Below, one piece after another: positions 1 through 19,879 of a DNA stretch of 64,000 nucleotides. The DNA is from Desulfobacteraceae bacterium UBA2174 (GTDB taxonomy: Bacteria > Desulfobacterota > Desulfobacteria > Desulfobacterales > UBA2174), in contig DCWA01000006.1 in NCBI GenBank assembly GCA_002327445.1, positions 29,662 through 93,661 of the forward strand, in the 5' to 3' direction. Each line of letters opens with the position of its first letter. Position 1 is the stretch's first letter. Both the position numbers and the translations under genes were made by a program. Under the pieces are notes generated by a model. It searched no databases and was not told the origin of the DNA. It saw nothing but the letters and a program-made list of their open reading frames with translations.

Positions 1-1
1 C

Positions 2-415
2 TTGACCATGACGGCGATGCTGGCGGCGGCGGTGGCAATTTTCGGGGTGCGGATCCATGGGAGTCTCCTCCTGCTCTACGTGCTCACCGGGATCTACCTC
101 GTCGGCAACCTGGGGCTCGCCCTGTGGATCAGCGCCGGGGCCCGCACCCAGCAGCAGGCCCTGCTCACCGCCTTTCTCCTCATCATGCCCTGCGTGATGC
201 TCTCCGGGTTCATGTTTCCCATTCACAACATGCCCCTGATGGTCCAGGCGGCCACCTGGCTCAACCCCATGCGCTGGTATCTGACCATTCTGCGCGGGGT
301 GGTGACCAAGGGCGTCGGGCTGGCCACCCTCTGGCCGGCCGTGGCGGCTCAGAGCGCCTTGGCGGTGGGGTTTGTCCTTCTCGCCTCCCGGCGATTCCGC
401 AAGACCCTGCGGTAG
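2..415 (+). CDS. ABC-2 type transporter permease, C-terminal part (5' end outside window)
   Basis: Hydrophobic helices; motifs SGFMFPIHNMP and NPMRWYLTILRG typical of YbhR/YbhS-like permeases. Confidence 0.85.
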   Translation: MTMTAMLAAAVAIFGVRIHGSLLLLYVLTGIYLVGNLGLALWISAGARTQQQALLTAFLLIMPCVMLSGFMFPIHNMPLMVQAATWLNPMRWYLTILRGVVTKGVGLATLWPAVAAQSALAVGFVLLASRRFRKTLR

Positions 416-487
416 GGACGGATGCGAGGCGCGAATCTCGCGAACGAAAATTTGTCCGGGGGATGTTCGGTTCGGGTCTTCATTGCG

Positions 488-504
488 TTGGCACCCCGGG
501 TGCG
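488..504 (+). promoter_or_regulatory. Putative sigma54 -24/-12 promoter
   Basis: TGGCAC-N5-GTGC, one mismatch to TGGCAC-N5-TTGC, about 50 nt before ATG 552. Confidence 0.45.
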
Positions 505-551
505 TTATGAGCAGGCAGGATTTTCCATTCAACCCAAACGGAGAAGCCGGC

Positions 552-1334
552 ATGAAAACACGAATGCGCATCTGGAAAGGCGGCTTGATCTTGGCGCTGG
601 GGATGGCGTTGTGGATCGGTTTGGGGGAGGCCGAGGCCGGAAGCGACTGGCTCAAGACCGGCGGGGATCTGCTCAAGCAGGCTACCGGTTCGCCGGCCGC
701 CGGGGGGAAAAGCAGTGAAGGCGCCCTGGCGCCCGCGGAGATCGGCGAAGGGCTCAAGGAGGCGCTGCGCGTCGGCACGGACCGGGTGGTGGGCCGGCTG
801 GGCGCGGCGGATGGTTTCAACGCCGACCCCAAGGTGCACATTCCTCTGCCCAAGAGCCTGCAGACGGTTCACCAGGCCCTCTCGCGCGTCGGCATGGGGG
901 GGATGACCCAGGATCTCGAGCTGCGCCTCAATCGCGCCGCCGAGGCCGCGACCCCCAAAGCCAGGGACCTGTTTCTGGACGCGATTTCCCGGATGACCAT
1001 CGCGGACGCCCAAAAGATCTGGAAAGGGCCCTCTGACGCGGCCACCCGATACTTCGAAGGCAAGATGAGCGCGCCGCTGGCCGCGGTAATGCGGCCGGTG
1101 GTGGAAGAAAGTCTGACGGCGGCCGGGGCGGTCCAGGCCTATGACCAGGTCATGGGCCGATACCGGAGCCTTCCCCTCGTGCCCGACCTGAAGGCGGACC
1201 TGACCGGGCACGTCGTCGATGGCGCCCTCGGCGGTATTTTCAGCTACCTGGCCGAGGAGGAGGCCGCCATTCGTGCCAACCCGGCCCGTCGCACCACCGA
1301 ATTGCTCAAGAAGGTGTTCGGTTCAACCAACTGA
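552..1334 (+). CDS. DUF4197 family exported protein
   Basis: Signal peptide (AEA); GLKEALRVG, LNRAAEAA, EEAAIRANPARRTTELLKKVFG motifs; GGAG upstream of ATG 552. Confidence 0.85.
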   Translation: MKTRMRIWKGGLILALGMALWIGLGEAEAGSDWLKTGGDLLKQATGSPAAGGKSSEGALAPAEIGEGLKEALRVGTDRVVGRLGAADGFNADPKVHIPLPKSLQTVHQALSRVGMGGMTQDLELRLNRAAEAATPKARDLFLDAISRMTIADAQKIWKGPSDAATRYFEGKMSAPLAAVMRPVVEESLTAAGAVQAYDQVMGRYRSLPLVPDLKADLTGHVVDGALGGIFSYLAEEEAAIRANPARRTTELLKKVFGSTN

Positions 1335-1340
1335 TTCCCC

Positions 1341-2567
1341 ATGCGCCTGCTGCCCATTCTCATTTTCGTGCTGACGTACCTCGGGGTGGCGCTGGGACAT
1401 GTGCCGTGGCTGACCCTGGACCGTACCGGAATCGCCCTGCTGGGGGCCATCGCCATGGTGGCTTCCGGCGCCTTGCCGCTGGATTTTGCGCTCGGCGCCA
1501 TCGACCACGGGACGATCCTGCTGCTCTTCGCCCTGATGATCGTATCGGCCCAGCTCCGGCTGGGCGGATTCTACACCCGCGTGGCCCTCCACAGCGCCGG
1601 GCTGCTCGACCGCCCCTACCTGTTCCTCTTCGCCGGCATGCTGCTGAGCGCCGTGCTTAGCGCCGTACTGGCCAACGATATCGTCTGCCTGGCCTTCGCC
1701 CCGGCCATCGCCGTCAGCGTGCGCCGTGCCCGCCTCAACCCGGCCCCGTTTCTGCTCGGCCTGGCGCTGGCGAGCAACATCGGATCAGCGGCCACCCTCA
1801 TCGGCAACCCTCAGAACATGCTCATCGGCCAGGTGGGGCGCATGGCCTTTGGCCCGTTTCTCGCCTGGTGCCTGCCACCGACCCTCGTCAGCCTGCTCAT
1901 CGCCTTCGTTTTCTTGTGCGGCCTTTATCGTGGGCGGCTGACCGATCCCGGCCTCCGGACCCTCCCGCCCGACGACTGCCGTCTCCAGCCTTTCAACCGG
2001 TGGCAGAGCACCAAGGGGATCACGGCCACCACGGTGCTCATCGTCCTGTTTTTCACCGGGATTCCGCGCGAGTTGTCCGCCCTGGCCATGGCGGGGCTGC
2101 TCCTGTGCAGCCGACGCATGAAGTCCCGCGAGATCCTCGCCCTGGTCGACTGGCACCTGATCACCCTGTTTTGCGCGCTGTTCATCGTCATCGAGGGGAT
2201 CAGCCTCCAGGGGGGGCCGGAATGGATGCTGGACAGGCTGGCCGCCCGGGGAATTTCGCTTCGCGATCTGCCCGTGCTCGCCGGAGTCGCCGCCCTTTTG
2301 AGCAATCTGGTGAGCAACGTGCCGGCCGTGATGCTGCTGGTGCGCTTCCTGGATGCGGGGGCACCGGCGCAGTGGTACACCTTGGCGGTGGCCAGCACCT
2401 TCGCCGGCAACCTGATTCTCATCGGCTCCATCGCCAACCTTATCGTGGTGGAGCAGGCGCGCAACTGCGGGGTAGAGATCGGTTTCGTCGAGCACGCCCG
2501 GGTGGGGATCCCCACAACCCTGGCGAGCCTGGCGGTGCTTTGGGGATGGATCCATTTGGCCGGATGA
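1341..2567 (+). CDS. ArsB/NhaD (CitMHS-like) anion transporter
   Basis: Multi-TM; SAVLANDIVCL, SNIGSAATLIGNPQN, SNLVSNVPA, GSIANLIV motifs. Confidence 0.85.
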   Translation: MRLLPILIFVLTYLGVALGHVPWLTLDRTGIALLGAIAMVASGALPLDFALGAIDHGTILLLFALMIVSAQLRLGGFYTRVALHSAGLLDRPYLFLFAGMLLSAVLSAVLANDIVCLAFAPAIAVSVRRARLNPAPFLLGLALASNIGSAATLIGNPQNMLIGQVGRMAFGPFLAWCLPPTLVSLLIAFVFLCGLYRGRLTDPGLRTLPPDDCRLQPFNRWQSTKGITATTVLIVLFFTGIPRELSALAMAGLLLCSRRMKSREILALVDWHLITLFCALFIVIEGISLQGGPEWMLDRLAARGISLRDLPVLAGVAALLSNLVSNVPAVMLLVRFLDAGAPAQWYTLAVASTFAGNLILIGSIANLIVVEQARNCGVEIGFVEHARVGIPTTLASLAVLWGWIHLAG

Positions 2568-2863
2568 GCGGCTCGGAAAAGGTTGCAGGTTTCGGGTTTC
2601 AGGCTTGGGAATGGGGAAAGGGCCGGCTGGTGGTGGAGGAAGGGGAAGGTCCGAAATTCACCTCCCGAAATCGGACCTTTCGGCAACCGCCAAAAGGGTC
2701 AAAAAATGCTGTCCTTAGCATCCGATTTCGGTTAATAGAGCCCACACGGAGCGAGGTGGAACCGACCTGGACCAACGGGTTCCACCTGCCGCGCCGCCCC
2801 CGTCACCGATGGGAGCGGCGGCCGCCGCTTTTCCGTTGGCAGACCAGATTCTTAGGATTGCGC

Positions 2864-4273
2864 ATGAGCAGCGCACCAAAACGCATCCTCGTCATCTCCG
2901 CCGATCCGTCCCATTGCAACGCCATCGAGGCGGCTCTCAAGGACCGTTACCGGGTCCAGGGGGCAAGTGCCCTCGCGCGCGGGTTCGAGCTGTTCCAGGC
3001 CCAGCGCTATGAGGTCACCTTCATCGACTTGGCCGCCTTGGCCGAGGGCGAGCGCCCCGTGGATTACAAGCAGGCGCTCAATCGGTTTTTTCAGGTCTAC
3101 CCCACCGCCGGCGTCGTGGTGATGTGCACCCCGGCGACCCTGCGCGAGGCGGTGGCCGCCGTCAAGGCCGGGGCCAACGATTATTTGATCTGCCCGGTGG
3201 AATCCGACGAGGTCAAGCTGATCATCGATCATTTCTTCGATGCGCGGATCCGAGAGAGCGAACTGGACTACCTCTGGGATCAGTTCTGGGAAAAAGACGC
3301 CCTGGACCTGGTGCGCACCCGCAGCCCCTTGATGCGCGGCGTTTTCCAGAAGCTGCGCTCGGTGGCCCCCACCAAGACCACGGTCCTGCTCACCGGCGAG
3401 ACCGGCACCGGCAAGGGGGTCATGGCCCAGTTGATTCACAAGCACAGCAACCGGCGGGACCGGCAATTCATAAGCGTCCACTGTGGCGCCATTCCCGATA
3501 CCCTGCTGGAGAGCGAACTGTTCGGGCATGAAAAGGGCGCCTTCACCGGCGCCACCCGGCGCAAGCTCGGCAAGTTCGAAATCGCCAGGGACGGCACGAT
3601 TTTCCTGGACGAGGTGGCCTCCATCAGCGCCGCGGCCCAGGTCAAACTGCTCAAGGTGCTTCAGGAGCGGACTTATGAGCGGGTCGGTGGGGAGCAGACC
3701 CTCGAGGCCCAGGCGCGCATCATCGCCGCCACCAATATGGATCTGAAGGAGATGACCGAGGCCGGAACCTTTCGCAAGGACCTGTTCTACCGGCTCAACG
3801 TCTTTCCTATCGAAATCCCGCCCCTGCGTGAACGCAAGGAGGACCTTTCGCTGCTGGCCGAGTTGTTCGTTCAGCGGCTCAATCAGTTCTACAACAAGGA
3901 AATTGCCGGGGTTCACCCGGCGGTGCTCGGCGCTTTCGATGCCTACGACTGGCCCGGAAACATCCGGGAACTGGAGAATCTCATCGAGCGGGCCTACATC
4001 CTGGAAACGAGCAAGCTGCTAACGCCGGAGAGCTTCCCTGGCGAGTTGTTCAGCACCGCGCCCGTCGCCCAGGTCCCCATGGACGCTTCTCACACCCTGG
4101 CCGAGGTCCGGCGCCGCGGCATCGAACACATCGAGCGGCAGTATCTCAAGGAGTTGCTCACCGCCCAGCACGGCCGGATCAAAAACTCCGCCGAACAGGC
4201 CGGCATTACCACCCGCCAACTTCACAAGTTGCTCACCCGTTATCATATCCACAAGGAAGACTACAAAAACTGA
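2864..4273 (+). CDS. NtrC-family sigma54-dependent activator (receiver-AAA+-HTH)
   Basis: GETGTGK, ESELFGHEKGAFTGA, FLDEV, DLFYRLNV, WPGNIRELEN; start set to ATG 2864 because the ORF-track extension overlaps the transporter. Confidence 0.93.
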   Translation: MSSAPKRILVISADPSHCNAIEAALKDRYRVQGASALARGFELFQAQRYEVTFIDLAALAEGERPVDYKQALNRFFQVYPTAGVVVMCTPATLREAVAAVKAGANDYLICPVESDEVKLIIDHFFDARIRESELDYLWDQFWEKDALDLVRTRSPLMRGVFQKLRSVAPTKTTVLLTGETGTGKGVMAQLIHKHSNRRDRQFISVHCGAIPDTLLESELFGHEKGAFTGATRRKLGKFEIARDGTIFLDEVASISAAAQVKLLKVLQERTYERVGGEQTLEAQARIIAATNMDLKEMTEAGTFRKDLFYRLNVFPIEIPPLRERKEDLSLLAELFVQRLNQFYNKEIAGVHPAVLGAFDAYDWPGNIRELENLIERAYILETSKLLTPESFPGELFSTAPVAQVPMDASHTLAEVRRRGIEHIERQYLKELLTAQHGRIKNSAEQAGITTRQLHKLLTRYHIHKEDYKN

Positions 4274-4446
4274 AAAAAGGAACACCGGATTCTTCCCGTC
4301 GACGAAGTGGAACGTCCGGTTCCGACGCCCGACGGGTTGACGGGCCGGATGGACGATGCCGCGGCAGGGTGCGATGCCATGGGAAAGCTTGCCCGTGGCC
4401 GACGCGCGGGGCGTGATGGCTGCCGGCAATCGATTCACGCCGACTG

Positions 4447-4463
4447 TTGGCACGTCTGTTGCT
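4447..4463 (+). promoter_or_regulatory. Sigma54 -24/-12 promoter
   Basis: TTGGCACGTCTGTTGCT, perfect TGGCAC-N5-TTGC, about 60 nt upstream of ATG 4524. Confidence 0.8.
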
Positions 4464-4523
4464 CTGCTGGGGTAAGTTTGAAAGCAGGCGGACAGGTCCG
4501 TCCAGGGACAAGAAGGAGGAGAG

Positions 4524-4817
4524 ATGCGTCGGATGGGGAGTTGGACCCCGGTGTTTGCCGTGGCGGTGGTGGCGGCGCTGGTGACCCTGGCGGGGGCCGG
4601 CGAGGTGCCCACGGTGGAGCTGACCGGGGAAATCAACGAGATCTACCAGTTGGTCACCGAAGGCGGAGAAGTCTACGAGATCGGCATCAACGATGTGGGC
4701 AACGACCTGGTGGACAGCCACATCAACGAGAAGGTGCGCGTCCGCGGGACGATCAGCACGGCGGAAGACGGCGCCCGGGTCATCATGGTGACGTCTTTTG
4801 AAGTGATCTCCGAATAG
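4524..4817 (+). CDS. Small exported beta-rich (OB-fold-like) hypothetical protein
   Basis: Strong RBS AGGAGG; signal-peptide-like N-terminus; acidic beta-strand pattern (KVRVRGTI..DG.RVIMV). Confidence 0.7.
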   Translation: MRRMGSWTPVFAVAVVAALVTLAGAGEVPTVELTGEINEIYQLVTEGGEVYEIGINDVGNDLVDSHINEKVRVRGTISTAEDGARVIMVTSFEVISE

Positions 4818-4843
4818 CGGCCCGCCTTCGCGAGGCGCCTTGC

Positions 4844-5152
4844 ATGAAAAAAAGAAAAGACTTCCGCGACCAGGAAACTCGAGAAACCATTGCTGGCGTC
4901 GTGACGCCTTGCGGATGGGACGAGAACGGCCGGATCACCGCGGTGATGCTTTCGGCCCTGGACGATGAAGAGTATCTGATCGAGAACGGTGAAAAATTCA
5001 TCGACCTCGTCCATCACAACGTCCGGGCCAGCGGTGTCGTGAAGCGCGATCCCAAGCGTTTTCGCACCATCACCATCAAGAAGATCGTTTTGACCGAGCC
5101 CCCCGCCCCGGAAGAAACCGAGGACGGTTGGATCATCGAATCCCGAGGCTGA
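4844..5152 (+). CDS. Small cytoplasmic OB-fold-like hypothetical protein
   Basis: GAGG RBS; similar strand pattern to the upstream gene (EEYLI..NVRASGVV..RTITI). Confidence 0.65.
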   Translation: MKKRKDFRDQETRETIAGVVTPCGWDENGRITAVMLSALDDEEYLIENGEKFIDLVHHNVRASGVVKRDPKRFRTITIKKIVLTEPPAPEETEDGWIIESRG

Positions 5153-5295
5153 CGCGCTTCTCCCGGTGTGCGCGGAAAAAATGCCACCCCCAAAAGGGCG
5201 GCGGACGGCCCGAATGGGGGCGCTGACCGCCGACGCCGGCGGGATTCACTTTTAGGCCGCCCCGACGGGCGGTCCCCGAAAGGAGCATACAACGC

Positions 5296-5568
5296 ATGAA
5301 CAAACAGGAACTGATTGTCGAAGTCGAAAAGGCGATAGCCGACCGCAAAGCGGCCCGTACCGCGGTGGAAAGTCTGTTACAGCGCATCGAACAGGCGCTG
5401 CAGAAAGGGGATGCGGTCACGTTGACCGGTTTCGGCGCCTTCAAGGTGATCGAGCGCCGGGCCCGCACCGGCAGAAACCCGAAAACCGGTGCGCCTCTGC
5501 CCATCCCGGCCCGCCGCTCGGTGACTTTCACGCCGGGAAAAACTCTGCGCGAGGCCGTTGTCGACTGA
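5296..5568 (+). CDS. hup: HU family DNA-binding protein
   Basis: MNKQELI, GFGAF, ARTGRNPKTG, FTPGKTLRE; AGGAG RBS. Confidence 0.93.
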   Translation: MNKQELIVEVEKAIADRKAARTAVESLLQRIEQALQKGDAVTLTGFGAFKVIERRARTGRNPKTGAPLPIPARRSVTFTPGKTLREAVVD

Positions 5569-5871
5569 GACTTTCCCGCCATTGTTCTTCATGTCATCAA
5601 GGGGTGGGGATTGGGATCTGCAAGCGTCTGGGAAAAAACACCCGGGGAGCGGTTTCCCGCCGCGAACGACCGGGACCGGTTACGACGGTTGGTCAGGCGG
5701 AAAGCTGTTCTGCCGGAAGGTCCGCGCATGCCAGGCGTTTTTCACCGGGGAGTCGGGTTTGACAGGCGTCCGGCGCCGATGTACATGAAAAACGACACCG
5801 CATCCAATGCCTGATCCGCTTGCGAAAACCGGCTGGACGCCAGACCGGGTTTGGCCTCAAGGAGGACAGCA

Positions 5872-6144
5872 ATGCACGACTCCCACGACTACTTGCATGG
5901 GCACGATCACCACCATCACGATGCGCCGACGGACTTGCCCTTCGCCGCCAAACTGACCAAACGGCTCGAAAACTGGCATCGGCACAACGAAGACCATCTC
6001 GGCGACTATGTGCAATGGGTGGAAGAGGCCGCCGATCAAGGGTATCCGCAGGTGGCGGCCCATCTTCGGGAAGTGGTCGAGATGACCCGGCAGATCAGCG
6101 ATCGGATTGCCAAGGCCCTCGCGGCGGCCCAGGCGAAAAAGTAA
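5872..6144 (+). CDS. His-rich small helical protein, putative metal (Ni) binding
   Basis: AAGGAGG RBS; N-terminal HDSHDYLHGHDHHHH; WHRHNEDH motif; lies upstream of the hydrogenase operon. Confidence 0.75.
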   Translation: MHDSHDYLHGHDHHHHDAPTDLPFAAKLTKRLENWHRHNEDHLGDYVQWVEEAADQGYPQVAAHLREVVEMTRQISDRIAKALAAAQAKK

Positions 6145-6679
6145 AGCGATCGCAGCCCTGATGAATTTTCCGCGATAGGCGATTTCCGCGACCCACACCA
6201 GCGTGGCCCCCTCCTTTTGCACAATGAACCGGATGTGGCGGGACGACGGCATCGGCGTCTCCCGGACCCCGGTTTCCATCAAGGTGATCCCCCGGCGAGT
6301 TTTTCCATGGTCAACCGCCTCCGCCGGGGAAGCCCCCTCCTCATATCGGTGATTTCCGGTTCGCACCTATCTGAGGATTTCAACCCGGCCGCGATGTCCA
6401 GGATCCGGTGGCCGGTCATTGTTGCTCCTTCGGCCGCCCGCGACCCGTGGGCAGTTTCCCTGACATCCGCCGCCCGCGGCAGTAGTCATCCGCCCAAGCG
6501 TAAAATTTCCCCATTCGCCGCCAAAGGGGAGGGCGGATTGCCGGCGCAGTCCACTGGCAACCCGGTGGCCGCCGAAAATGGTGGGTCGGGCGATTCCAAG
6601 AGAAAGTGGAACGGATGAGCCAAAATTTCTGTTGCCATCGATGGGGAAATTAGTTATGCAGAAATAAAAGTTTGCAATA

Positions 6680-6722
6680 TTGGCATAAGGGTTGATGCAA
6701 ATATTGCACAAGATTGCACAAA
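6680..6722 (+). promoter_or_regulatory. Putative sigma54-like promoter plus direct-repeat operator of the hydrogenase operon
   Basis: TGGCAT-N5-TTGA (6681-6695, GA instead of GC) followed by ATGCAAA/TTGCACA/TTGCACA at 9-10 bp spacing in an AT-rich patch. Confidence 0.45.
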
Positions 6723-6760
6723 TTTTTTCCATCACAACCCAAGATCGTGGGGTGCGGATC

Positions 6761-7549
6761 ATGCTCAAACGCATTTACGAAAAGCCCCGGTTGGTGTTTG
6801 GCTGCGGCAACCCCTTGTTCGGAGACGATGGATTCGGCGCCGAGGTGATCCGGCTGCTCGAAACCGAGTACCACCTCCCGAACGACGTGGCCTGCCTGGA
6901 TGTGGGCACTGCGGTGCGCGACATCCTTTTCGACATGCTCCTGTCGGGCAAGTATCCCCGACAAATCATCATTGTCGATGCCATGGCCTTCAAGGAGGCG
7001 GCGCCTGGCGAAATTTGCGAGATCGGCCTCGACGACATTCAGCCGGCCAAGATCGTCGACTATTCGCTGCACCAGTTTCCCACCACCAACATGCTCAAGG
7101 AGCTGCGGCAACACACCGATATCGACGTCCGCATCCTGGTGGTCAACCCCGCGGTGATTCTTCCCGAGGTGCATCCCGGCCTTTCGGAGCCGGTGCAGGC
7201 CGCGGTGCGGCCCATGTGCGAGCGGATACTGGGTCTGCTGGCGCCGGTTTCCCAGGGCAGCCCGGGAGGCGATGCCGGAGGCCGCAGCCTCGTTTTCCGG
7301 GTCGGTGCCCTCGCCGCCCACCTCGGGGTGCACCGCAACACCGTGACCAACTGGATCAAGACCGGCAAGCTGAACGCCCGGCCCACCATCGGCAAGAAAT
7401 ACCTTGTCGAGGAAACGGAGCTTGAGCGGTTTGCCCGGGACGCGGGCATCGAACAAGCCGCCTGGCGGACCGCGATGGATGCCGGGACCCGTCATTCGCT
7501 GGTTCCCGGCGCTTTCCTTTCCACTCCTTCTGACCAGAAAGAGGTTCCC
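6761..7549 (+). CDS. Hydrogenase maturation protease (FrhD/HycI-like) fused to excisionase/MerR-like HTH; no stop before hdrA (frame continues)
   Basis: GCGNPLFGDDGFG, IIIVDA, SLHQFP, GLSEPVQAAV; then LAAHLGVHRNTVTNWIKTGKLNA..KYLV; same frame as ATG 7550. Confidence 0.85.
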
Positions 7550-10500
7550 ATGTCCCAATCCTCCATCGGAGCGGTAATGGTCGTCGGCGGCGGCATCGCC
7601 GGCATCCAGGCGACCCTCGACCTGGCCGAGTCCGGCTTCTTCGTCCACATGGTGGAAAAGAGCGCCGGCATCGGCGGGGTCATGGCGCAGTTGGACAAGA
7701 CCTACCCCACCAACGACTGCGCCATGTGAATCATCTCCCCGAAACTGGTCGAGGTCGGCCGGCATCTCAACGTGAACCTGCTCACCCTTTCCGAAGTCGT
7801 CGGTGTTTCGGGCCGGGAGGGCAACTTCACCGTCACCGTCAAGCAGCATCCCCGTTACATCGACATGGACAAGTGCATCGCCTGCGGGCTGTGCGCGGAA
7901 AAATGCCCCAAGAAGGTCGAAGACGAATTCAACATGGGGCTCAACAAGCGCAAGGCGGTCTACATCAAGTACGGCCAGTCCGTGCCGCTCAAATACGCCA
8001 TCGATCCGGCCCACTGCATCTACTTGACCCGGGGCAAGTGCCGGGCCTGCGAGAAGTTCTGCCCCACCGGGGCCATCAACTTCGACGATAAGGAAAAGAT
8101 CGTCACCCTCCAGGTGGGGGCGGTGATCCTGGCCCCCGGCTACAAGCCCTTCGATCCGTCGCCCTACGATTTCTACGGGTACAAAAAGATCGGCGATGTT
8201 GTCACCAGCCTGGAGTACGAGCGGCTGCTGTCGGCCAGCGGGCCGTGCATGGGACATCTCAAGCGCCCCTCGGACAACCGCGAGCCGCGCCGCATCGCCT
8301 GGATCCAGTGCGTCGGCTCCCGCAGTACCAACCGCTGCACCAACGCCTACTGCTCCAGCGTTTGCTGCATGTACGCCATCAAGCAGGCGCTGGTGACCGC
8401 CGAACACCTCACCGGCGACGGGTTGCAGCAGAGCATCTTCTACATGGACATCCGCAGCCCGGGAAAGGAGTTCGAACGCTTCTACGAGGACGCCCGGGCC
8501 AAGGGGGTCAACTTCGTGCGCGCCAGGCCGCATTCCATCGATCCGGGGCCTGACGGCCACGGCGTGCGCCTGCGCTACACCACCGAAGCCGGCGAGACGC
8601 TGGTGGAAGACTTCGACATGACGGTTCTGTCTGTCGGGCTGGAGGCCCCGGCCGACGCGCGCCAGATCGCCGACACCTTCGGCATCACCCTCGATGAATT
8701 CGGATTTGCCAGGACCGAGGCCTTTGCGCCGGTGAGCAGCACCCGGCCGGGGGTCTTTGTCACCGGCGCCTTCCAGGGCCCCAAGGCGATTCCGCGATCG
8801 GTGGCCGAGGCCTCCACGGCGGCGGCCGAGGCGGCCCACCTGCTCATCGACGCCCGCGGCACCCTCACCCATGAAAAAACCTATCCGGCCGAAAGGGACG
8901 TCTCCGGCGAAGCGGCGCGCATCGGCGTTTTCGTCTGCTCCTGCGGCATCAACATCGCCGGGGTGGTGGATGTGAAGGCGGTGGCCGCCTATGCGGCCAC
9001 CTTGCCCAACGTGGTCTTCGTGGACAACAATCTGTTTACCTGCTCGGCCGACACCCAGGTTCTGATCGCCAAGAAGATCGCCGAGCATGGGCTCAACCGC
9101 ATCGTAGTGGCCGCCTGCACCCCGCGGACCCACGAGCCGCTGTTTCAGGAAACGCTCAAGGAGACCGGCCTCAACGCCTATCTGATCGAGATGGCCAACA
9201 TCCGCAACCAGAACGCCTGGGTTCATCAGAAGATGCCCGAGCGGGCCACGGAAAAGGCCAAGGACCAGGTGCGCATGGCCGTGGCCAAGGCCTCGCGCAT
9301 GGCCCCGCTGGACCGCCTGCGGGTCGCCGTCAACCAGAAGGCCCTGGTGATCGGCGGCGGCGTGGCCGGCATGACCGCGGCCCTGACCCTGGCCGATCAG
9401 AAGATCCCCGTCGTGCTGCTGGAAAGCTCCGGTCGTCTCGGCGGCAACGCCTGGCGCCTGACGGATACCGACACCGGCGTGCCGATCCGTCCGATGCTCG
9501 AAGATCTGATCGGCCAGGTGGAAGGCCATCCGGAGATCCGGGTGATGAAAAACGCCCGGCTCAAGACGGCGGTGGGCTCGGTGGGCAACTTCGTCAGCCA
9601 GATCGAGGTAGACGGGCAGACCCTGGCCGTCACCTACGGGGCCGCCGTGGTGGCCGTCGGGGCCCGGGAGGCGGTGCCGGAGGAATACAGCTACGGCGAA
9701 AGCGACCGGGTCATGACCCACCTGGAGTTTGACGCCTTCGCCGATGGCCACGGCGTGGAAATCAAACAGGCTTCCAGCGTGGTCTTCATCCAGTGCGTCG
9801 GCTCCCGGGAGCCCAAGCGGCCCTATTGCAGCCGGGTCTGCTGCACCCACACGATGAAAAGCGCCATCCGCCTCAAGACCCTCAATCCGGACGTGCAGAT
9901 TTATGTTCTATACCGCGACATCCGCACCTACGGCAAACGCGAGGTCCTCTATCAGAAGGCCCGCGAGCTGGGGGTGATCTTCATCCGCTACGAGGTGGAA
10001 AGCAAACCGTCCGTCCGGCCGGAAGCCTCGGGACTGACGGTGTCCGTCTTCGATCCGATTTTGCAGCGCCCCCTGGAACTGTCCGCCGACTACCTGGTGC
10101 TGGCGGCGGCGGTGGAGCCCAATGACGACCGTCAGTTGGTGGAGCTGTATAAGTGCGGCCAGAACGAGGACGGTTTTCTCAACGAGGCCCATCCCAAGCT
10201 GCGCCCGGTGGACATGTCGGTGGACGGGCTCTTTGTGGCCGGCCTGTGCAACTACCCCAAGCCGGTGGATGAAAGCATCGCCCAGGCCAAGGCGGCCGCG
10301 GCTCGCGCCGCGGTGCTGCTGGCCCGCCATGAGATGCATCTGGATGCCATCAAGAGTTTTGTCACGGCAGATTGCGACGGGTGCGCCCTGTGCGTGGATG
10401 TCTGCCCGTACCGGGCGATTTCCCTGGAAGAGTTCCAGGACGCCGATGGCCATCCGCGCAAGCGCATCAAAACAGATCCGGCCCTGTGCAAGGGGTGCGG

Positions 10501-10609
10501 GCTGTGCATGGCCACCTGCCCCAAGGGGGGTGTCCTGGTGCACGGATTCACGCTGGAGCAGATCGGCGCCCAGGTGGAAGCGGCGTTGAAAGTGCCTAAA
10601 GTGAGCTAA
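7550..10609 (+). CDS. hdrA: Heterodisulfide reductase subunit A-like flavo-FeS selenoprotein with two HdrA modules (1019 aa; Sec60 at TGA 7727-7729)
   Basis: GAGGT RBS at 7541; GGGIAG, LDKTYPTNDCAM-TGA-IISPKL matches the HdrA DCxxC motif; ORFs ending 7729 and starting 7772 share a frame; two CVGSR..CS.VCC motifs and ferredoxin motifs. Confidence 0.92.
7745..7762 (+). other. SECIS hairpin of hdrA
   Basis: CTGGTCG-AGGT-CGGCCGG (7 pairs incl. G-U); loop begins 22 nt after the TGA. Confidence 0.75.
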
Positions 10610-10736
10610 AGTGAGCTAAAGTTAAGGAATTCTGGCAGTTTTATAAAAACCACCGGAGCGCAGCGACACCACAACTTTAGGCACTTTAGGCACTCGTCAC
10701 TTTAGGCACTTTAGGCACTTATAACTTTAGTCACTT
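10589..10736 (+). repeat. Intergenic palindromic tandem-repeat element, copy 1
   Basis: Left arm of AAAGTG(CCT/AGCT) units, about 50-bp core, right arm of ACTTTAGGC units; second copy at 42.6 kb. Confidence 0.85.
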
Positions 10737-10772
10737 AAGATATTTTTCCCATATTCAGAAAGGAGTCGGATC

Positions 10773-11213
10773 ATGGCCGACAACTTCGAACCTGCGATCA
10801 TCGGTTTTCTGTGCAACTGGTGCGCCTATGCCGGCGGCGACTTGGCCGGCGTCTCCCGGTTGCAGTACCCGCCCAACATGCGCGCCGTCCGGGTGATGTG
10901 CTCGGGGATGGTCCATCCGGACCTGGTGGTGGGTGCCTTGCGCAAGGGGGCCGACGGCGTCATCGTCATGGGCTGACACCTCGGTGAATGCCATTACCTG
11001 GACGGTAATGTCAAAGCTCTGGGCCGCGCCGCAGCCATCCGCATCGTTCTGGAGGATCTGGGGATCGATCCGGAGCGTTTCGCCATCGAGTGGGTCTCGT
11101 CCGCCGAAGCCCCGCGGTTTGCCGAGGTGGTGACGCGCTTCACCGAAAAGATCCGGTCTCTGGGCCCCAACCGCGCCGCGGCGCCGGAAGCGGCGGCCGA
11201 AGCCGCCGCCTGA
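10773..11213 (+). CDS. mvhD: MvhD/FlpD hydrogenase FeS subunit, selenoprotein (146 aa; Sec68 at TGA 10974-10976)
   Basis: FLCNWCAY, VRVMCSG, GADGVIVMG-TGA-HLGECHYLDGN equals the GC..G.CHY motif; continues with ERFAIEWVSSAEAPRF to TGA 11211. Confidence 0.93.
10992..11010 (+). other. SECIS hairpin of mvhD
   Basis: CATTACC-TGGAC-GGTAATG perfect 7-bp stem; loop begins 22 nt after the TGA. Confidence 0.85.
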
Positions 11214-11235
11214 CCGGTGTGAAAAGGAGAAGATC

Positions 11236-12354
11236 ATGAAAACCTTTTTCGACCTGATCCAGGAAGTCCAGAAACCCGGCCTCTGCCATCGCTGCGGCGG
11301 TTGCGTGACCTTCTGCACGGCCGTCAACTACGGCGCCCTGGAACTCGACGACGACGGAAAGCCGCGCTACGGTGACATCGAAAAATGCATCGAATGCGGC
11401 CTGTGCTACGCCATCTGCCCGGAGATCGACGAACTGGAGGAGGAAACGCGCCGGCGGGCCGCCTGGAGCGCGCCCATGGGCCGGATCATCGAGACCAGCG
11501 TGGCCCGGGCCAGCGATGCCGCGGTGCGGCAGCACGCCACCGACGGCGGGGTCGTCACCGCCATCCTTTTGCACCTCTTCGACCGGGGGCGCATCGACGG
11601 GGCCATCGTGGCCAAGCAGGTGGGCCCGTTTCAACGTCGCCCGTTTCTGGCCACCACCCGCGACGAGATTCTCGAATCGGCCGGCTTTTTCTTCGATACC
11701 TCCCACGGGATGAAAAGCTTCAGCGACCAGTACATGACCTATTCCTCCATCGAAGAGTTCGATCCCATGGTCAAAAAGGGATTGCATCGCGTGGCGCTGG
11801 TGGGCACACCCTGCCAGATCAAGTCGGTGCGGCGTATGCAGACCATGGGGCTGGTGCCCTCGGATGCGATCCATTTCTGTTTCGGCCTGTTTTGCTCGGG
11901 CAACTTCGTTTTCGGGGAAAAGGAGCGGGCCGATCTGGCCGCGGCCCACGGGTTCGACTGGAACCAGGTGCGCAAGATCAACATCAAGGAAGCGTTGATG
12001 CTGCACATGAAGACTGGAGAAGTGAAGACGATTCCGCTGGAAGATCTGGCATCGATTCGCCGATATGCCTGCCGTTTCTGCCCGGACTACGCGGCCGAAT
12101 TCGCCGACATCTCCTTCGGCGGCATCGGGGCCAAGGAGGGATGGACCACGGCCATCACCCGCACGCCCGTCGGCCGGGCGGTGTTTTCCGACGCCCGCAC
12201 GGCAGGGGCGCTGGAGTGTTTCCGCTACCAGGACGATCCCCGCTACGCCAGCACCGCCCTGGAAAAGGTGCAGGAATGGTCCCGGCGCAAGAAGGAAAGC
12301 GCCGCGGAATTTCGCAAGGAGCTGGGCGCCCGATCCGTTCGGGTCAAGGCGTAA
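11236..12354 (+). CDS. F420 hydrogenase/dehydrogenase beta subunit (FrhB/FdhB-like) with N-terminal 2x[4Fe-4S]
   Basis: CHRCGGCVTFC, CIECGLCYAICP, TDGGVVTAIL, VGTPCQ, GLFCSGNF, CRFCPDYAAEFADISFG. Confidence 0.88.
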   Translation: MKTFFDLIQEVQKPGLCHRCGGCVTFCTAVNYGALELDDDGKPRYGDIEKCIECGLCYAICPEIDELEEETRRRAAWSAPMGRIIETSVARASDAAVRQHATDGGVVTAILLHLFDRGRIDGAIVAKQVGPFQRRPFLATTRDEILESAGFFFDTSHGMKSFSDQYMTYSSIEEFDPMVKKGLHRVALVGTPCQIKSVRRMQTMGLVPSDAIHFCFGLFCSGNFVFGEKERADLAAAHGFDWNQVRKINIKEALMLHMKTGEVKTIPLEDLASIRRYACRFCPDYAAEFADISFGGIGAKEGWTTAITRTPVGRAVFSDARTAGALECFRYQDDPRYASTALEKVQEWSRRKKESAAEFRKELGARSVRVKA

Positions 12355-12419
12355 GGCCCGGTCTGCAACCGGATCGGCGGGCCGGCGCCTCGGCCCCCGA
12401 TCGTCAGGAGGGATGGAAG

Positions 12420-13361
12420 ATGACGGTAAAAGTGGCAAGCGAATGGCTCAACTCCTGTTCGGGATGCGAGATCGCCATCATAGACCTGGGAGAACGCTTG
12501 CTGGACGTGCTCAAGGTGGCCGATTTCGTCCATCTGCCGGCGCTGATGGACCACAAGTACTTCGGCCAGCTCGGCGACGGCCGCCATATGGAAATCCCCG
12601 AGGCCGACGTGGGGCTGATCAGCGGGGCGATCCGCAACACCGAACACCTGGAAGTCGCCCTGGAGATGCGCCGGCGCTGCAAGACGATCATCGCCCTGGG
12701 CACCTGCGCCACCCATGGCGGGATCCCGGCCCTGTCCAACTCTTATACGCCGGAAGAGATTCTCCACCGGTACTACACCACCGAAAGCACCGACGCGCCG
12801 GAGCGCCGCCCCGACCCGACCATCGTGCCGCCGCTGCTCGACCGCTGCTACGCCCTGGACGAGAAGATCGCGGTGGACATCTACCTGCCCGGCTGCCCCC
12901 CGCATCCGGACCACATCTTCGGGGCCCTGACGGCCCTGGTGGAAGGCCGGCCGCCGGTGCTGCCGGGAAAAAGCGTCTGTGACGTTTGCCCGACGCGGCG
13001 CGAGGGCAAGGGGCAGCTCCAGAAGCTGCGGCGGTTTCTCGAAGCGCCGGTGTACGCCGAGCCCGGCGCGCCGTTGGACGAAATGCGCTGTCTGCTCGAA
13101 CAGGGATTTCTCTGCATGGGACCGGTCACCCGCGCCGGTTGCGGCGGGCTCGACGGTCCGCCGCGGTGCATCGCGGCCCGGGTCCCCTGCCGGGGCTGCT
13201 ACGGGCCGGTGCGCCAGGACGGCAACCCGCGTCTGGACATGCTCAACGCCCTGGCTTCCAACGGAATCGACATCCAAAGCCTGCCCGAGAGCATTTCGAT
13301 GCTGCGTTTTGCCGGAGCGCACGGGCTGCTGCGTCCGGCAGGAAAAAGAAAGGAGTCGTAA
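12420..13361 (+). CDS. mvhG: Group 3c-type hydrogenase small subunit
   Basis: AGGAGG RBS; WLNSCSGC, GTCATHGGIP, LPGCPP, VCDVC, CLLEQGFLCMGPVTRAGC, PCRGCYGP. Confidence 0.9.
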   Translation: MTVKVASEWLNSCSGCEIAIIDLGERLLDVLKVADFVHLPALMDHKYFGQLGDGRHMEIPEADVGLISGAIRNTEHLEVALEMRRRCKTIIALGTCATHGGIPALSNSYTPEEILHRYYTTESTDAPERRPDPTIVPPLLDRCYALDEKIAVDIYLPGCPPHPDHIFGALTALVEGRPPVLPGKSVCDVCPTRREGKGQLQKLRRFLEAPVYAEPGAPLDEMRCLLEQGFLCMGPVTRAGCGGLDGPPRCIAARVPCRGCYGPVRQDGNPRLDMLNALASNGIDIQSLPESISMLRFAGAHGLLRPAGKRKES

Positions 13362-13364
13362 ACC

Positions 13365-14828
13365 ATGTCCCGGGTCATCAACATTCAGCCCATCACCCGC
13401 ATCGAGGGGCATGCCTCCATCGGCATCGAACTCGACGACGCGGGCAACGTGAACCAGGCGCGGGTCAACATCCTGTCCATGCGCGGGTTCGAGAAGTTCG
13501 TGGAGGGCAAGCCCGCCGAGGAGCTGCCGCGGATCGTCAGCCGCATCTGCGGCATTTGCCCATGGATGCACCACCTGGCGTCCAACAAGGCGGTGGATGG
13601 CTGCTTCGGCGTCACCCCGACACCGGCCGGCGGCAAGCTGCGCGAGCTGATGCAGGCCATTTCCCACGCCGAAGACAAGCTGCTGCACTTTTTCTTTCTG
13701 GCCGCCGCCGATTTCGTCATCGGGCCGGATACCGACTATGCCGTGCGCAACGTGATCGGCATCGTCAAGAGCAACCCGGACCTGGCCCAGCGGGTCGTCA
13801 AGATGCGCCAATTGGCCAAGATGACCCTGGACCAGTTTTCCAACAAGGCGATTCATCCCATCGCCGGGGTGCCGGGCGGCTTTTCCAAGCCCTTACGGGA
13901 GGAAGACCGCATCGAGATCCTCAGCCGGATGCGCCAGCTTCTCGATTTCGCCCTCTTCACCATGGACCTGGCCAAGAAGGACATCTTCCCCAAGTACATG
14001 GAGGCGATTCAGACCATCGGCGTCATCCGGACCGGCTTCATCGGCACGGTGGACGACGACGGGGCCCTGAACCTCTACAACGGCAAGCTGCGCTTGATGC
14101 GGCCCGACGGCAGCATCACCGCGTTTGCCTACGAGGATTACACCGATTACATCGGCGAGCAGGTGCTCCCCTTTTCCTACGGCAAGTTTCCCTATGCGCG
14201 CTGCTGGAACGAGGGCTTCTCCCTGGATCTGGACGAGCCCCGGGGGGTCTACCGGTCCAACACCCTGGCCCGCATCAACGTGGCCGACAAGATTGCCACG
14301 CCCCGGGCCCAGGCCGAACTGGAGGAGTTTCGCCAGCACTTCGGCCGGCCGGCCCAGGCTACCCTGCTGTACCACTGGGCCCGGCTCATCGAGGAGGTGT
14401 ACGCCTGCGAACGGGCCATCGAGATCCTGGAGGATCCGGAAATCACCGATCCGAACGTACGGGCAGCCGTGGCGCCCAAGGCCGGCCGTGGCGTGGGCTG
14501 CGTGGAAGCGCCTCGCGGCACTCTCATCCACGACTACACCACGGATGAGAACGGCCTGATTCTGCACGCCAACATGATCGTGGGCACCACCCACAACCTC
14601 GGGCCCATCAACATGAGCGTCGATCAGGCGGCCCGGGAACTGATCCACGACGGGGTGGTCAACGAGGGAATCCTCAACCGGATCGAGATGGCGGTGCGCG
14701 CCTACGACCCGTGAATTTCCTGCGCGACGCATCGCCTGGACGGCGATCACGGCATCACCATCACCATCAGCGACGCTTCCCATAACGTCGTCCGGCGCTG
14801 GCCCGAGAGGGAGGGGCGCCTCCTGTAG
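13365..14828 (+). CDS. mvhA: [NiFeSe] group 3c-type hydrogenase large subunit (487 aa; Sec450 at TGA 14712-14714)
   Basis: TRIEGH, RICGIC (L1), EAPRGTLIH, RAYDP-TGA-ISCATH (L2 DPCxxC) plus a 31-aa tail to TAG 14826-14828. Confidence 0.93.
14731..14747 (+). other. SECIS hairpin of mvhA
   Basis: ATCGCC-TGGAC-GGCGAT; same loop as the mvhD hairpin; loop begins 22 nt after the TGA. Confidence 0.85.
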
Positions 14829-15118
14829 CCATCCATCACGGACAATGGACAAAACCCTGCCGTCCAGCGGCAGGCGATCCAAGGCCGGGGGCAGCCATGC
14901 TCCCGGCCGATTCTTTTGGAGTTCGACAGGTGGCCGTTCCCGGGGGCTTGACAACGCGATAGCGATGCCTGATGAATACTTTGGCATGCGCTGATCCATT
15001 TCGAAATTGCGATCCGGGGAAGCTTCATCCCGCAACGACCAAACGCTCCATTCATTCCGCCGGAAGGATGAAGCAGTCTCGATGAGAGGCTTCTTCCGAG
15101 GGCATTTAGGAGGATCCG

Positions 15119-15511
15119 ATGAAAATACTCGTGGCCTATGACGGTTCGGCGGCCAGTAACAGAGCGCTGAACCTGGCAATTGACAAGGCAAAGGCCAACG
15201 GTGCGCGGGTCTATGTCGTCACCTCGATGAGCAAGGGCACCCAGAGCCAGTTGCACGACATTCAGGAAACAGAGAAGAAACTGGATGAAATCAAGAAGAT
15301 GCTCCAGGACCAAAACATTTCCGCCGATACCGCGCTATTGATCCGAGGGGTGGAGCCTGGGGAGGATGTGGTCGAATTCGCGAAGGAAAACGAAATCGAT
15401 GAGATTTTTGTGGCGATCAGAAAACGCTCCAGGGTGGAAAAGATGATTCTCGGATCGACGGCGCAATACGTGATTCTGAACGCCCATTGCCCGGTGATCA
15501 CGGTGAAATGA
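15119..15511 (+). CDS. Universal stress protein
   Basis: MKILVAYDGS, ILGSTAQYVILNAHCPVITVK; AGGAGG RBS. Confidence 0.92.
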   Translation: MKILVAYDGSAASNRALNLAIDKAKANGARVYVVTSMSKGTQSQLHDIQETEKKLDEIKKMLQDQNISADTALLIRGVEPGEDVVEFAKENEIDEIFVAIRKRSRVEKMILGSTAQYVILNAHCPVITVK

Positions 15512-16025
15512 GCCGTTTCCCGAACGTTGTGAAAATCCTTTCTTATGAATGATTCCGCCGGCGCGCGGCCTGCCTTGACACGCCATCCCAACGGGTTCGG
15601 GTTTTGCGCCGCTCGCGCCATTGCGCGACGGCGCGGGGAACTGGCCCCCCCGGGAGCATGGTGGAGCGCGCGGCGGCACCCGTCCCTCATTCGACGCCTG
15701 TGTCCCGTCCAACGTCGCTCCTCGCGAGGGGCGCCGGCTGCAGCATGCCATTGAAGGCCCGAAATTTGGGACCAGCGTGAGAGAGCCCCCGCCCCCCATC
15801 CCACCCTGTCCCCATCCTTCCGGCACCGGTGGCGGCGGCAGGGCGCACCGTTTCAAGGGGATCCCCTTCCGTGTTCGGACCGTGTTGCATTTATCGGCTC
15901 AAGATGGTATGAAACTCTGTGTTTCAATGTAATATTAATATATTAGAAGGTAATTCCCCCATGAGCGGTCCGATCTTCGCGTCGTTGCACGGTATCCATG
16001 CCAGGGTTGTTTCCGGAAGGTTTTG

Positions 16026-16445
16026 ATGGCGTCTGTGTCTCCCGAGATTGATGGCAAGCTGCGTATTGCAAGCGCCAGCGATATCGTTGCGGTACGCAAA
16101 AGCGTGCGCGAAGTGGCGGCGGTGATGGGGTTCGATGTTGTCCGCAGCACCCGCATCGTTACCGCCGCCGCCGAGCTGGCGCGGAACATCATTCATTATG
16201 CCGGTTCCGGGGAACTGACCTGGAAATCGGTGGCACACGAAGGACGCAAGGGGCTTCGTCTCGAATTTCTCGACCATGGCCCGGGCATCGCCGACATTTC
16301 CCAGGCCATGGCTCCGGGCTACAGCAGCTCCGGAGGGCTCGGCATGGGGTTGCCTGGCGCCAAGCGGTTGGCCGATGAGATGATCGTGCAGTCGGAGGCC
16401 GGCAAGGGGACGAACGTGGTGATCCTCCAGTGGCTGCCGTTGTGA
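16026..16445 (+). CDS. rsbT: RsbT-like anti-sigma regulatory Ser/Thr kinase
   Basis: TAAAELARNIIHYAGSG, DHGPGIADI..AM..GYSS..GLGMGLPGAKRLADE. Confidence 0.88.
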   Translation: MASVSPEIDGKLRIASASDIVAVRKSVREVAAVMGFDVVRSTRIVTAAAELARNIIHYAGSGELTWKSVAHEGRKGLRLEFLDHGPGIADISQAMAPGYSSSGGLGMGLPGAKRLADEMIVQSEAGKGTNVVILQWLPL

Positions 16446-16504
16446 GTCCCCACTGCCGGAAAGGCGGCACGTTCGATTGACAGAATTTGTGGAGAAGGAC
16501 GCAG

Positions 16505-17533
16505 ATGGCCAATCTTCTGATCGTGGACGATGAAGCCCAGATACGCCTGATGCTCAGCCAGATGCTCACCGCCAAAGGGCATCAATGCACGTGCGCCGCC
16601 GATCCGGACGAGGCCCGAAGCCTGTTGAAAGGCGCTTCCTTTGACTTGATTCTATGCGACATCAACATGCCCGGGGAAAACGGGATGAGCCTGATGCGCG
16701 ACATCCTGCCCCGTTACCCGGATACCGCCGCCATCATGGTCACTGGCATCGACGATCATGTCGTTGCCGAGCAATTCTTCGACCTGGGGGTTTACGGCTA
16801 CCTCACCAAACCTATCGACCGTACCCGGGTCTTGATCGCCGTGGCCAATGCCCTGCGGCGTCATGAGCTGGAACGCATCAACCGCGAGTACCAGGCAGGA
16901 CTGGAATCGCTGGTGGCCCAGCGCACCGAAGCCCTCAGGGAAATGGTGCAGACCAAGCACCGGACTCTTGTCGGCATGGTGCATGCCATCGCTGCCATCG
17001 TGGAAAACCGGGATCCCTACACCGCCGGCCACCAGCGCCGTGTCGCGGAACTGGGCCGGGCCATGGCCGTCAAGCTGAAAATGACCGCCATCGAAATCGA
17101 AGGGATCTTCATGGGGGGATTGATCCACGACGTTGGCAAGATCGCCATTCCCTCGGAAATTCTGTCCAAGCCCGGCCGGTTGGATCCCATCGAGTTCGAG
17201 TTGATCAAGCGGCACACTACCGCCGGTTACGAGATTGTCAAAGACACCGCCTTCGATTGGCCCATCGCCGATATCGTGCACCAGCACCACGAAAAAATGG
17301 ACGGCAGCGGTTATCCCCGGCAACTGGTCGGGGCAGACCTTTCGCCGGCGGTTCGGATCATTTGCGTCGCCGATGTCGTCGAAGCCATGGCCTCCCATCG
17401 GCCTTACCGCCCGGCGCTGGGTATCGCGTCGGCCCTGGCGGAAATCGATACCCATAGCGGCACCAAGTATGATCCGGACAGCGTGCAGGCCTGCCTGGCG
17501 CTTTTCAAGAAAGATGGATACCGGCTTGAATAA
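16505..17533 (+). CDS. Response regulator with HD-GYP phosphodiesterase domain
   Basis: LLIVDDE, CDINMPG; RDPYTAGHQRRV, HDVGK, HHEKMDGSGYP. Confidence 0.92.
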   Translation: MANLLIVDDEAQIRLMLSQMLTAKGHQCTCAADPDEARSLLKGASFDLILCDINMPGENGMSLMRDILPRYPDTAAIMVTGIDDHVVAEQFFDLGVYGYLTKPIDRTRVLIAVANALRRHELERINREYQAGLESLVAQRTEALREMVQTKHRTLVGMVHAIAAIVENRDPYTAGHQRRVAELGRAMAVKLKMTAIEIEGIFMGGLIHDVGKIAIPSEILSKPGRLDPIEFELIKRHTTAGYEIVKDTAFDWPIADIVHQHHEKMDGSGYPRQLVGADLSPAVRIICVADVVEAMASHRPYRPALGIASALAEIDTHSGTKYDPDSVQACLALFKKDGYRLE

Positions 17534-19088: not shown

Positions 19089-19161
19089 TGAAAACCGTTT
19101 CGGCCGGCCCCCCCATTCGCCGGGAGCCGGCTTCAATCGCCGCGGCGCGAGCTGTACCCTT

Positions 19162-19536
19162 TCACTTGCCGGCGCTTTTCTTGCGCAGTTTGGTCACCGG
19201 CTTGGGAGCGGCGGGTTTGACGGCCAGACCGGACTTGCTCCTCTCAACCTCGAAGGTTTGCCCCTCTTTCAATCCGTAATGATCCACCAGATTTTTGGGG
19301 ATGATGAGACTGCCGCGCTTGTTGACGATGATGGTGGTCTTGGGGGTTTTGGGGCCGCTGGGACGGCCACTCTTGATCTCCGGCACGCGCCCCGCACTCA
19401 TCAACGCATTGGTATATGCGACCTTGAGCTGGGTGGAGGTCTTGAAACCGAAATGATCCATGATTTCCTTTTGCGGAACTTCATCCAGAACCATTTTCAA
19501 CAGCGCTTCCTCATCGAACTTTTTTTTCGGCGGCAT
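19162..19536 (-). CDS. Small basic protein with C-terminal AbrB/MazE/SpoVT-like DNA-binding domain
   Basis: AAGGAG RBS; VNKRGSLIIPKNLVDHYGLKEGQTFEV resembles the swapped-hairpin motif. Confidence 0.75.
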   Translation of the reverse strand: MPPKKKFDEEALLKMVLDEVPQKEIMDHFGFKTSTQLKVAYTNALMSAGRVPEIKSGRPSGPKTPKTTIIVNKRGSLIIPKNLVDHYGLKEGQTFEVERSKSGLAVKPAAPKPVTKLRKKSAGK

Positions 19537-19879
19537 ATTCGTAATCTCCTTTCGAGGATGATGATGGATAGACACCAGAGCGATAACATAAAATTTTGTC
19601 TGTGGCCAGGCTTTATTCGATTTTATTCGTTTTTCGATCTTCTTTCCCTAACGTGAATCGAGCCATTCAAAAAAACAGGCCAAACGTACGATACGAAGTT
19701 CGGAGTGAACCAATCAGGATGCGCCCGCAATATCCATTTCCGCCGGCCGCAAAGGCTCAAGGGATGCATGGAGAGGGGATAGAGGCAATTCCTGGTGTGG
19801 TAAAAATAAAAATTTGCTGTTATGCTGGCGGCGCCTGGATGATGAGAAGGGGGTTCACAAGGCGCCGGTCGGCGGGGAG

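Follow-up and report, generated by a model that had tools for sequence, protein, structure and literature searches.

A BldC-like DNA-binding domain fused to HdrA, and in one small clade to a maturation protease, is a candidate regulator of the Mvh-Hdr hydrogenase operon of sulfate reducers

Selenoprotein operons of the form glpC-hdrA-frhD-frhG-frhA are known from Deltaproteobacteria, as described in the available portions of PMC1794560 and PMC13188914, and a cluster of the form mvhA2DG-hdrA1 is described in the available portion of PMC2702500. The term 'helix-turn-helix' (HTH) does not occur in those portions of PMC1794560 and PMC13188914. Among DNA-binding proteins, BldC occupies direct repeats of 9 bp in a head-to-tail fashion, according to the available part of PMC5859096. 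Here we analyse a window of 64,000 nucleotides from Desulfobacteraceae bacterium UBA2174, numbered from its first letter. Its operon has in common with the selenoprotein operon, as far as the available portions of those reports describe it, a Sec-HdrA, a Sec-MvhD, MvhG and a Sec-MvhA in one operon, and differs from it in having an FrhB-like gene and no glpC in the operon. The features of the locus are as follows.

6672..6721, plus strand: candidate operator, with five GCA-centred half-sites at 6674, 6683, 6697, 6706 and 6716 (spacings 9, 14, 9 and 10)
6761..7240, plus strand: hydrogenase maturation protease domain, HycI/HybD-like, by profile match
7241..7285, plus strand: protease-HTH junction; here the protease stop of relatives overlaps the HTH start codon, an arrangement lost in this clade
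7286..7474, plus strand: BldC/Xis-like HTH_17 domain
7475..7540, plus strand: Pro/Ala/Ser-rich linker, unconserved, open in frame
7541..7552, plus strand: internal start for free HdrA, ATG 7550, preceded by a Shine-Dalgarno-like GAGGT
7550..10609, plus strand: HdrA-type flavo-iron-sulfur protein, 1019 aa with Sec
7727..7766, plus strand: Sec UGA at 7727-7729, followed at SECIS distance by a hairpin
10773..11213, plus strand: mvhD, with an in-frame UGA at 10974
11236..12354, plus strand: FrhB-like flavoprotein
12420..13361, plus strand: mvhG, small subunit
13365..14828, plus strand: mvhA, large subunit, which has an in-frame UGA at 14712 and, beyond it, a C-terminal extension

The earlier note had read this region as stop-free from ATG 6761 to the Sec TGA at 7727, with the start of HdrA nested in the same frame, and translation bears this out: codon 323, TGA 7727, is the sole internal stop of 6761-10609, read-through gives a product of 1282 aa, and ATG 7550 lies in frame behind GAGGT at 7541. 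The three products that it had proposed (322 aa, 1282 aa and a free HdrA of 1019 aa) can indeed be derived from the sequence, with the internal start under selection. A profile search places the domains in the order HycI (28-157), HTH_17 (181-226) and then HdrA. The protease domain scores 122.4 bits against TIGR00072 (cut-off 47.45) and aligns to 1cfz, and residues D22, D23, D73 and H104 are invariant in an alignment of 20 sequences; conserved acidic and His residues serve as ligands in this protease family. The likely substrate of the protease is MvhA with its C-terminal extension. At the ancestral start position of the HTH this genome has an AGC codon, so that the HTH would be made only from the protease start. 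Folding the 322-aa product as a single sequence gave an unusable model (pLDDT 35), and a terminator-like hairpin in the linker does not rise above chance.

The genome encodes selA, selB and tRNA-Sec. The selB match (G000:C3:100638-101651) covers profile positions 1-324 of 581 and stops at a contig end. The hairpin that follows UGA 7727 is not more stable than shuffled sequence (z -0.20), and an Rfam scan of positions 1-20000 returned zero matches for a SECIS hairpin; a common loop sequence is found in the hairpins that follow the UGAs of mvhD (10974-11040) and mvhA (14712-14775). The name mvhD for 10773..11213 is one that we presume from synteny and known motifs. Between hdrA and mvhD, an AT-rich gap (10596-10736) holds two short tandem arrays, with periods of 10 bp and 9/25 bp.

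A long frame of this kind could in principle be an artefact, and the earlier note had cautioned that one indel, by mutation or misassembly, might have created the fusion, pointing to an out-of-frame TGA at 7531. That TGA is present and does lie in another frame, but off-frame stops are usual in these linkers, the other two frames holding stops in 92 and 76 of 113 distinct linkers, and as a hint of an indel it is uninformative. Coverage was examined in contigs, rather than raw reads, from three studies that carry no flag as the source. A contig from X8 spans 7093-7605 gap-free with 3 letters different, one from X11 spans 7224-7548 gap-free with 0 letters different, and contigs from X10 span 6995-7450 and 7465-8036 gap-free, again with 0 letters different (X7 has no coverage at 7410-7517). 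Since gap-free contigs from three studies cover the region and show no indel, the frame is not an assembly error. Relatives also keep it, the same triple frame occurring in proteins P0003-P0005 at 80, 78 and 66% identity. We therefore regard an assembly error, or a single recent indel, as refuted as the origin of the fusion.

We classified 164 loci, leaving out 22 weaker ones, two of them duplicates; the loci are related, and the counts that follow are not independent. Both HTH and HdrA are held by 128/164 loci, with 10 lacking the HTH and 26 unclassifiable. The 128 comprise 119 in which the protease stops and an HTH-HdrA frame follows, 4 with the triple frame, 2 with protease-HTH and then a stop, and 3 that are broken, namely L034, with a frameshift in the linker, and L112 and L113, which are short of one base at the HTH start with the linker still open. 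Relatives do not all terminate after the HTH: the frame runs open into HdrA in 123/128 loci, compared with about 30% expected from shuffled linkers even with the frame fixed. This is the figure we use, the 0/113 linkers with an in-frame stop being true by class definition. Loci chosen by the HTH profile alone were fused to HdrA in 29/30 cases, and strong HTH matches occur in 33/401 genomes of the order. The linker itself is unconserved, being 57-192 nt long and 18% identical, versus 58% for the HTH and 84% for HdrA. The protease stop usually overlaps the HTH start, at an offset of -4 in 68/119 loci and of -8 in 22/119.

The internal start is kept as well. The ATG that starts HdrA is present in 93/108 distinct sequences, and the Glu codon upstream of it is GAG in 87 and GAA in 4, versus a background of 423:550; this bias points to a ribosome-binding site rather than a protein motif. 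We conclude from these comparisons that the open frame and the internal start are both selected, and that the conserved unit is HTH-HdrA, not protease-HTH. Some lineages have lost the internal start, and in these HdrA can be produced only with the HTH attached. Several individual loci depart from the general pattern. In L150 and L160 the HTH has been brought by a deletion straight up to the codons preceding the HdrA UGA, with further damage that gives the look of a decaying locus. The HTH-HdrA proteins P0148 and P0153, of about 1310 aa, hold a PF02662 domain, of the MvhD type, as well. Genome G404 carries a Sec-type HTH-HdrA alongside a Cys-type one (L219 and L221), and another (G462) has two Cys-type copies (L255 and L256) 12 kb apart around hysBA and hypFDE.

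The fusion claimed in the earlier note consequently stands, but the junction that marks the recent event is a different one: HTH-HdrA is common (119/164 loci), and the recent event is the joining of protease to HTH. A protein search found four triple-frame clusters, at 100, 80, 78 and 66% identity, and 16 protease-HTH proteins or clusters that end after the HTH; in L003 and L109 the protease-HTH stops ahead of an HdrA that still contains Sec. In a quick tree of 80 rows, which does not order the triple-fusion and protease-HTH-only forms, the protease-HTH forms make up one clade (SH-aLRT 96), and the triple fusions branch from within the short forms. Because the protease usually stops at the HTH start and HTH-HdrA is common, the protease-HTH junction is the derived form, confined to one small clade that includes this genome. 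A search of relatives of G007 found zero new protease-HTH loci. Across the phylum, 24/26 examined loci belong to this HTH family, the domain being carried by HdrA in 6 and by an HdrD/GlpC-type protein in 18. The HTH therefore has three partners: HdrA, across many Desulfobacterales; HdrD/GlpC, elsewhere in the Desulfobacterota; and, in a single clade, the protease. A related HTH_17 on a receiver domain (P0231, L379) is a separate family.

The domain itself matches HTH_17 of Pfam at 37.7 bits (cut-off 27) and falls slightly under the cut-off of TIGR01764 (28.5 bits versus 28.8). Its model (pLDDT 90.8) has a MerR-like wHTH fold without a coiled coil or effector domain, and BldC was the top match in both fold searches, albeit with modest scores (6amk, Z 5.6, rmsd 2.4, 52 residues aligned; Foldseek E 0.0055). 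The head-tail interface residues of BldC (Phe21, Val23, Trp31, Thr42, Leu43 and Gly44) correspond to L188, V190, W198, T209, I210 and G211 in an alignment that is weak (E 0.03). Other features of BldC are absent: the position of Arg30, which contacts a base, is taken by Asn197, invariant in alignment A2; the candidate unit is of the TTGCACA type rather than the AATT-N4-C site; and the domain is fused in all of the 128 loci except the frameshifted L034, with zero matches to a free HTH among proteins of 30-80 aa. As two features that mark the BldC family are missing, we have not filed the domain as BldC. By analogy, however, we infer that it binds 9-bp repeats head to tail as BldC does.

Promoters of relatives supply the candidate sites. 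The half-site spacings in these promoters peak at 9 (172 cases), 18 (43) and 27 (23), and a perfect 9-bp pair is present in 93/106 distinct promoters, versus 0.13 expected by shuffle. Promoters lacking the HTH have the perfect pair in 2/7 cases, at least one of them from a genome with an HTH at another locus. Outside the order, where the motif was applied but not trained, the pair lies directly upstream in 6/6 HTH-first and 15/18 protease-first operons, and the single frameshifted locus there is without it; since HTH-first operons are also preceded by the pair, it tracks the HTH and not the protease, also where the HTH is carried on HdrD/GlpC. Relative to TTGACA, the pairs sit over the -10 region or just downstream of the start, a position over the promoter that suggests repression. 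In L074, L076, L091 and similar loci with a TTGACA promoter the predicted start coincides with the protease ATG, which suggests that the mRNA is leaderless.

In the window, the candidate operator overlaps a sigma54-like element at 6681-6696, and a sigma70 scan of 6200-7800 found no plus-strand promoter. Compared with relatives the operator here is degenerate, with no perfect pair and a PWM score of 10.1 that, at rank 12, is unremarkable in the genome, and perfect pairs are present in 0/3 distinct triple-fusion promoters. At 6712, the candidate operator is longer by one 10-nt repeat unit in one X7 contig. A repeat period of 10 bp, guessed from the window, was rejected: it is found in only 4/106 relatives, and the period is 9. 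A broad regulon found no support, the distant matches being mostly background or a repeated element, with the motif ahead of hydrogenase small-subunit genes in only 4/29 cases in HTH-positive genomes versus 1/30. Strong motif arrays lie upstream of hydrogenase small-subunit genes at L294, L295, L302 and L304, in four HTH-positive genomes, and in G032 (L273-L276) an operator-like pattern lies within an intergenic element repeated several times in the genome. Genome-wide, the strict pattern occurs in 21/33 HTH-positive genomes versus 103/368 genomes of the order without a strong HTH match; its background in genomes is real.

Taken together, it is probable, on the comparative sequence evidence, that the BldC-like domain represses its own protease-hdrA-mvh operon through the 9-bp repeats while tethered to a protein of that operon. 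The domain would bind the direct repeats over the promoter, presumably head to tail, and the bound domain would repress the operon. The domain would ride on one of the operon's own products, and the internal start makes an HTH-free HdrA possible. Its signal could be the availability of the carrier: copies that are engaged with substrate, or have been built into the Mvh-Hdr complex, would be off the DNA, and surplus copies would shut the operon. We base this on the unconserved linker and the interchangeable carrier, and offer it tentatively, giving it a little less than an even chance. It is quite improbable that DNA binding is set allosterically by the fused HdrA or HdrD through its FAD or Fe-S state, as in a redox trigger enzyme. 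Two of the three HTH partners are redox proteins, other motif sites precede hydrogenase small-subunit genes (4/29 versus 1/30), and PutA provides a precedent for an enzyme-HTH fusion, as does RbkR in the available part of PMC5397151; the linker, however, is unconserved in both sequence and length, and the HTH is also found on the protease, which has no redox centre.

Another way to view the locus is through its UGA. The earlier note had proposed a selenium-sensing switch in which decoding of the UGA decides whether a DNA-binding protease is free or tethered to the complex. Worked out as a rival to the reading above, an undecoded UGA would free a short HTH product able to repress the three-selenoprotein operon, and read-through would tether the HTH to the complex. 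The UGA does lie downstream of the HTH in both the HdrA and the HdrD/GlpC fusions, the short product retains an intact HTH, the operon has three in-frame UGAs in a genome with the Sec machinery, and Desulfobacterales copies are mostly Sec-type. The Desulfobacteraceae-type Cys loci give a mixed result, which also counts against autorepression: a same-strand pair lies within 300 nt in 0/23, many of these loci being mid-operon; an opposite-strand pair is found in 7/23 and faces a divergent hysBA in the three inspected. The available part of PMC11097638 also describes selenium sensing for the control of Sec/Cys isogenes as unknown in M. maripaludis. Yet UGA-free Cys versions keep the HTH: 42 full-length HTH-HdrA proteins are stop-free, with Cys at the UGA position in 38 and 4 unmatched by the pattern. 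Outside the order the proximal operator is present in 6/7 Cys loci (7/8 with L362, at a contig end) versus 14/15 Sec loci, and selA is present in 10/10 Cys-type genomes tested. Moreover, protease-HTH forms that stop ahead of a Sec-HdrA uncouple the HTH from the UGA, with L109 keeping perfect repeats, and the short product would end inside the first nucleotide-binding fold of HdrA. The switch is thus not required, and we consider it unlikely. The broader idea, that the Sec UGA doubles as the stop of a repressor, with SelB-dependent read-through acting as a selenium sensor for transcription and here relocating the protease too, we hold equally doubtful. The UGA is dispensable for the HTH-operator system, in which it may serve as a secondary modulator. 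There is somewhat more to be said, though it too is rather unlikely, for the triple frame being a neutral relic in which the regulator is decaying and only the protease and HdrA functions matter. All 3 distinct promoters of triple fusions have a degenerate operator, the HTH no longer has its start codon, and the sister form L109 has acquired stops and a frameshift in its linker; on the other side, the recognition helix is intact, four sequences with identities as low as 66% keep the frame, and the promoter retains five half-sites. Under autorepression by the tethered domain, a one-off frameshift would here have joined protease to HTH, so that the predicted 322-aa and 1282-aa products both carry protease and HTH, and the triple fusion would be a tolerated step in passing the domain between neighbours, with the operator relaxed.

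The significance of these results is that they offer a concrete candidate regulator, a domain of 65 residues, together with a candidate operator, for the operon of the cytoplasmic Mvh-Hdr hydrogenase in sulfate reducers. Annotations conceal the regulator, since gene callers end it at the UGA. The locus is also a nested two-start gene, with a DNA-binding domain caught moving between adjacent genes, and if it were true that the UGA tunes repression it would be a recoding-based selenium sensor, of which we found none in the literature searched. Our literature search, with most subscription journals and supplements outside its scope, found no description of the fusion or of the repeat motif; the fusion is real and conserved, and apparently unreported in print.

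Enzyme-fused regulators, such as PutA and BirA, are already known, and HTH-HdrA adds a variant to them. It resembles RbkR, as described in the available part of PMC5397151, in carrying an enzyme and a DNA-binding domain on one polypeptide that is predicted to control its own genes. Unlike RbkR, the domain here moves among three partners, the enzyme can also be made without the domain from an internal start, and the domain is followed by a recoded stop. Like HrsM of Methanococcus (PMC11097638, in part), it would control the transcription of Hdr/hydrogenase operons that occur in Sec and Cys forms, but HrsM, a LysR repressor, is a separate protein and acts on Cys isogenes, and the available portion of that paper does not describe a link to UGA read-through. 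The closest likeness in the domain itself is to BldC of Streptomyces (6amk, 6ama; PMC5859096, in part) and the Xis-type HTH_17 (4j2n), with which it shares the fold, the head-tail interface residues and the 9-bp period of its candidate sites. However, BldC is a free global regulator of 68 residues with Arg30, whereas the HTH described here has Asn at that position, is almost always carried on a redox enzyme or a protease, and has candidate sites that are few and local.
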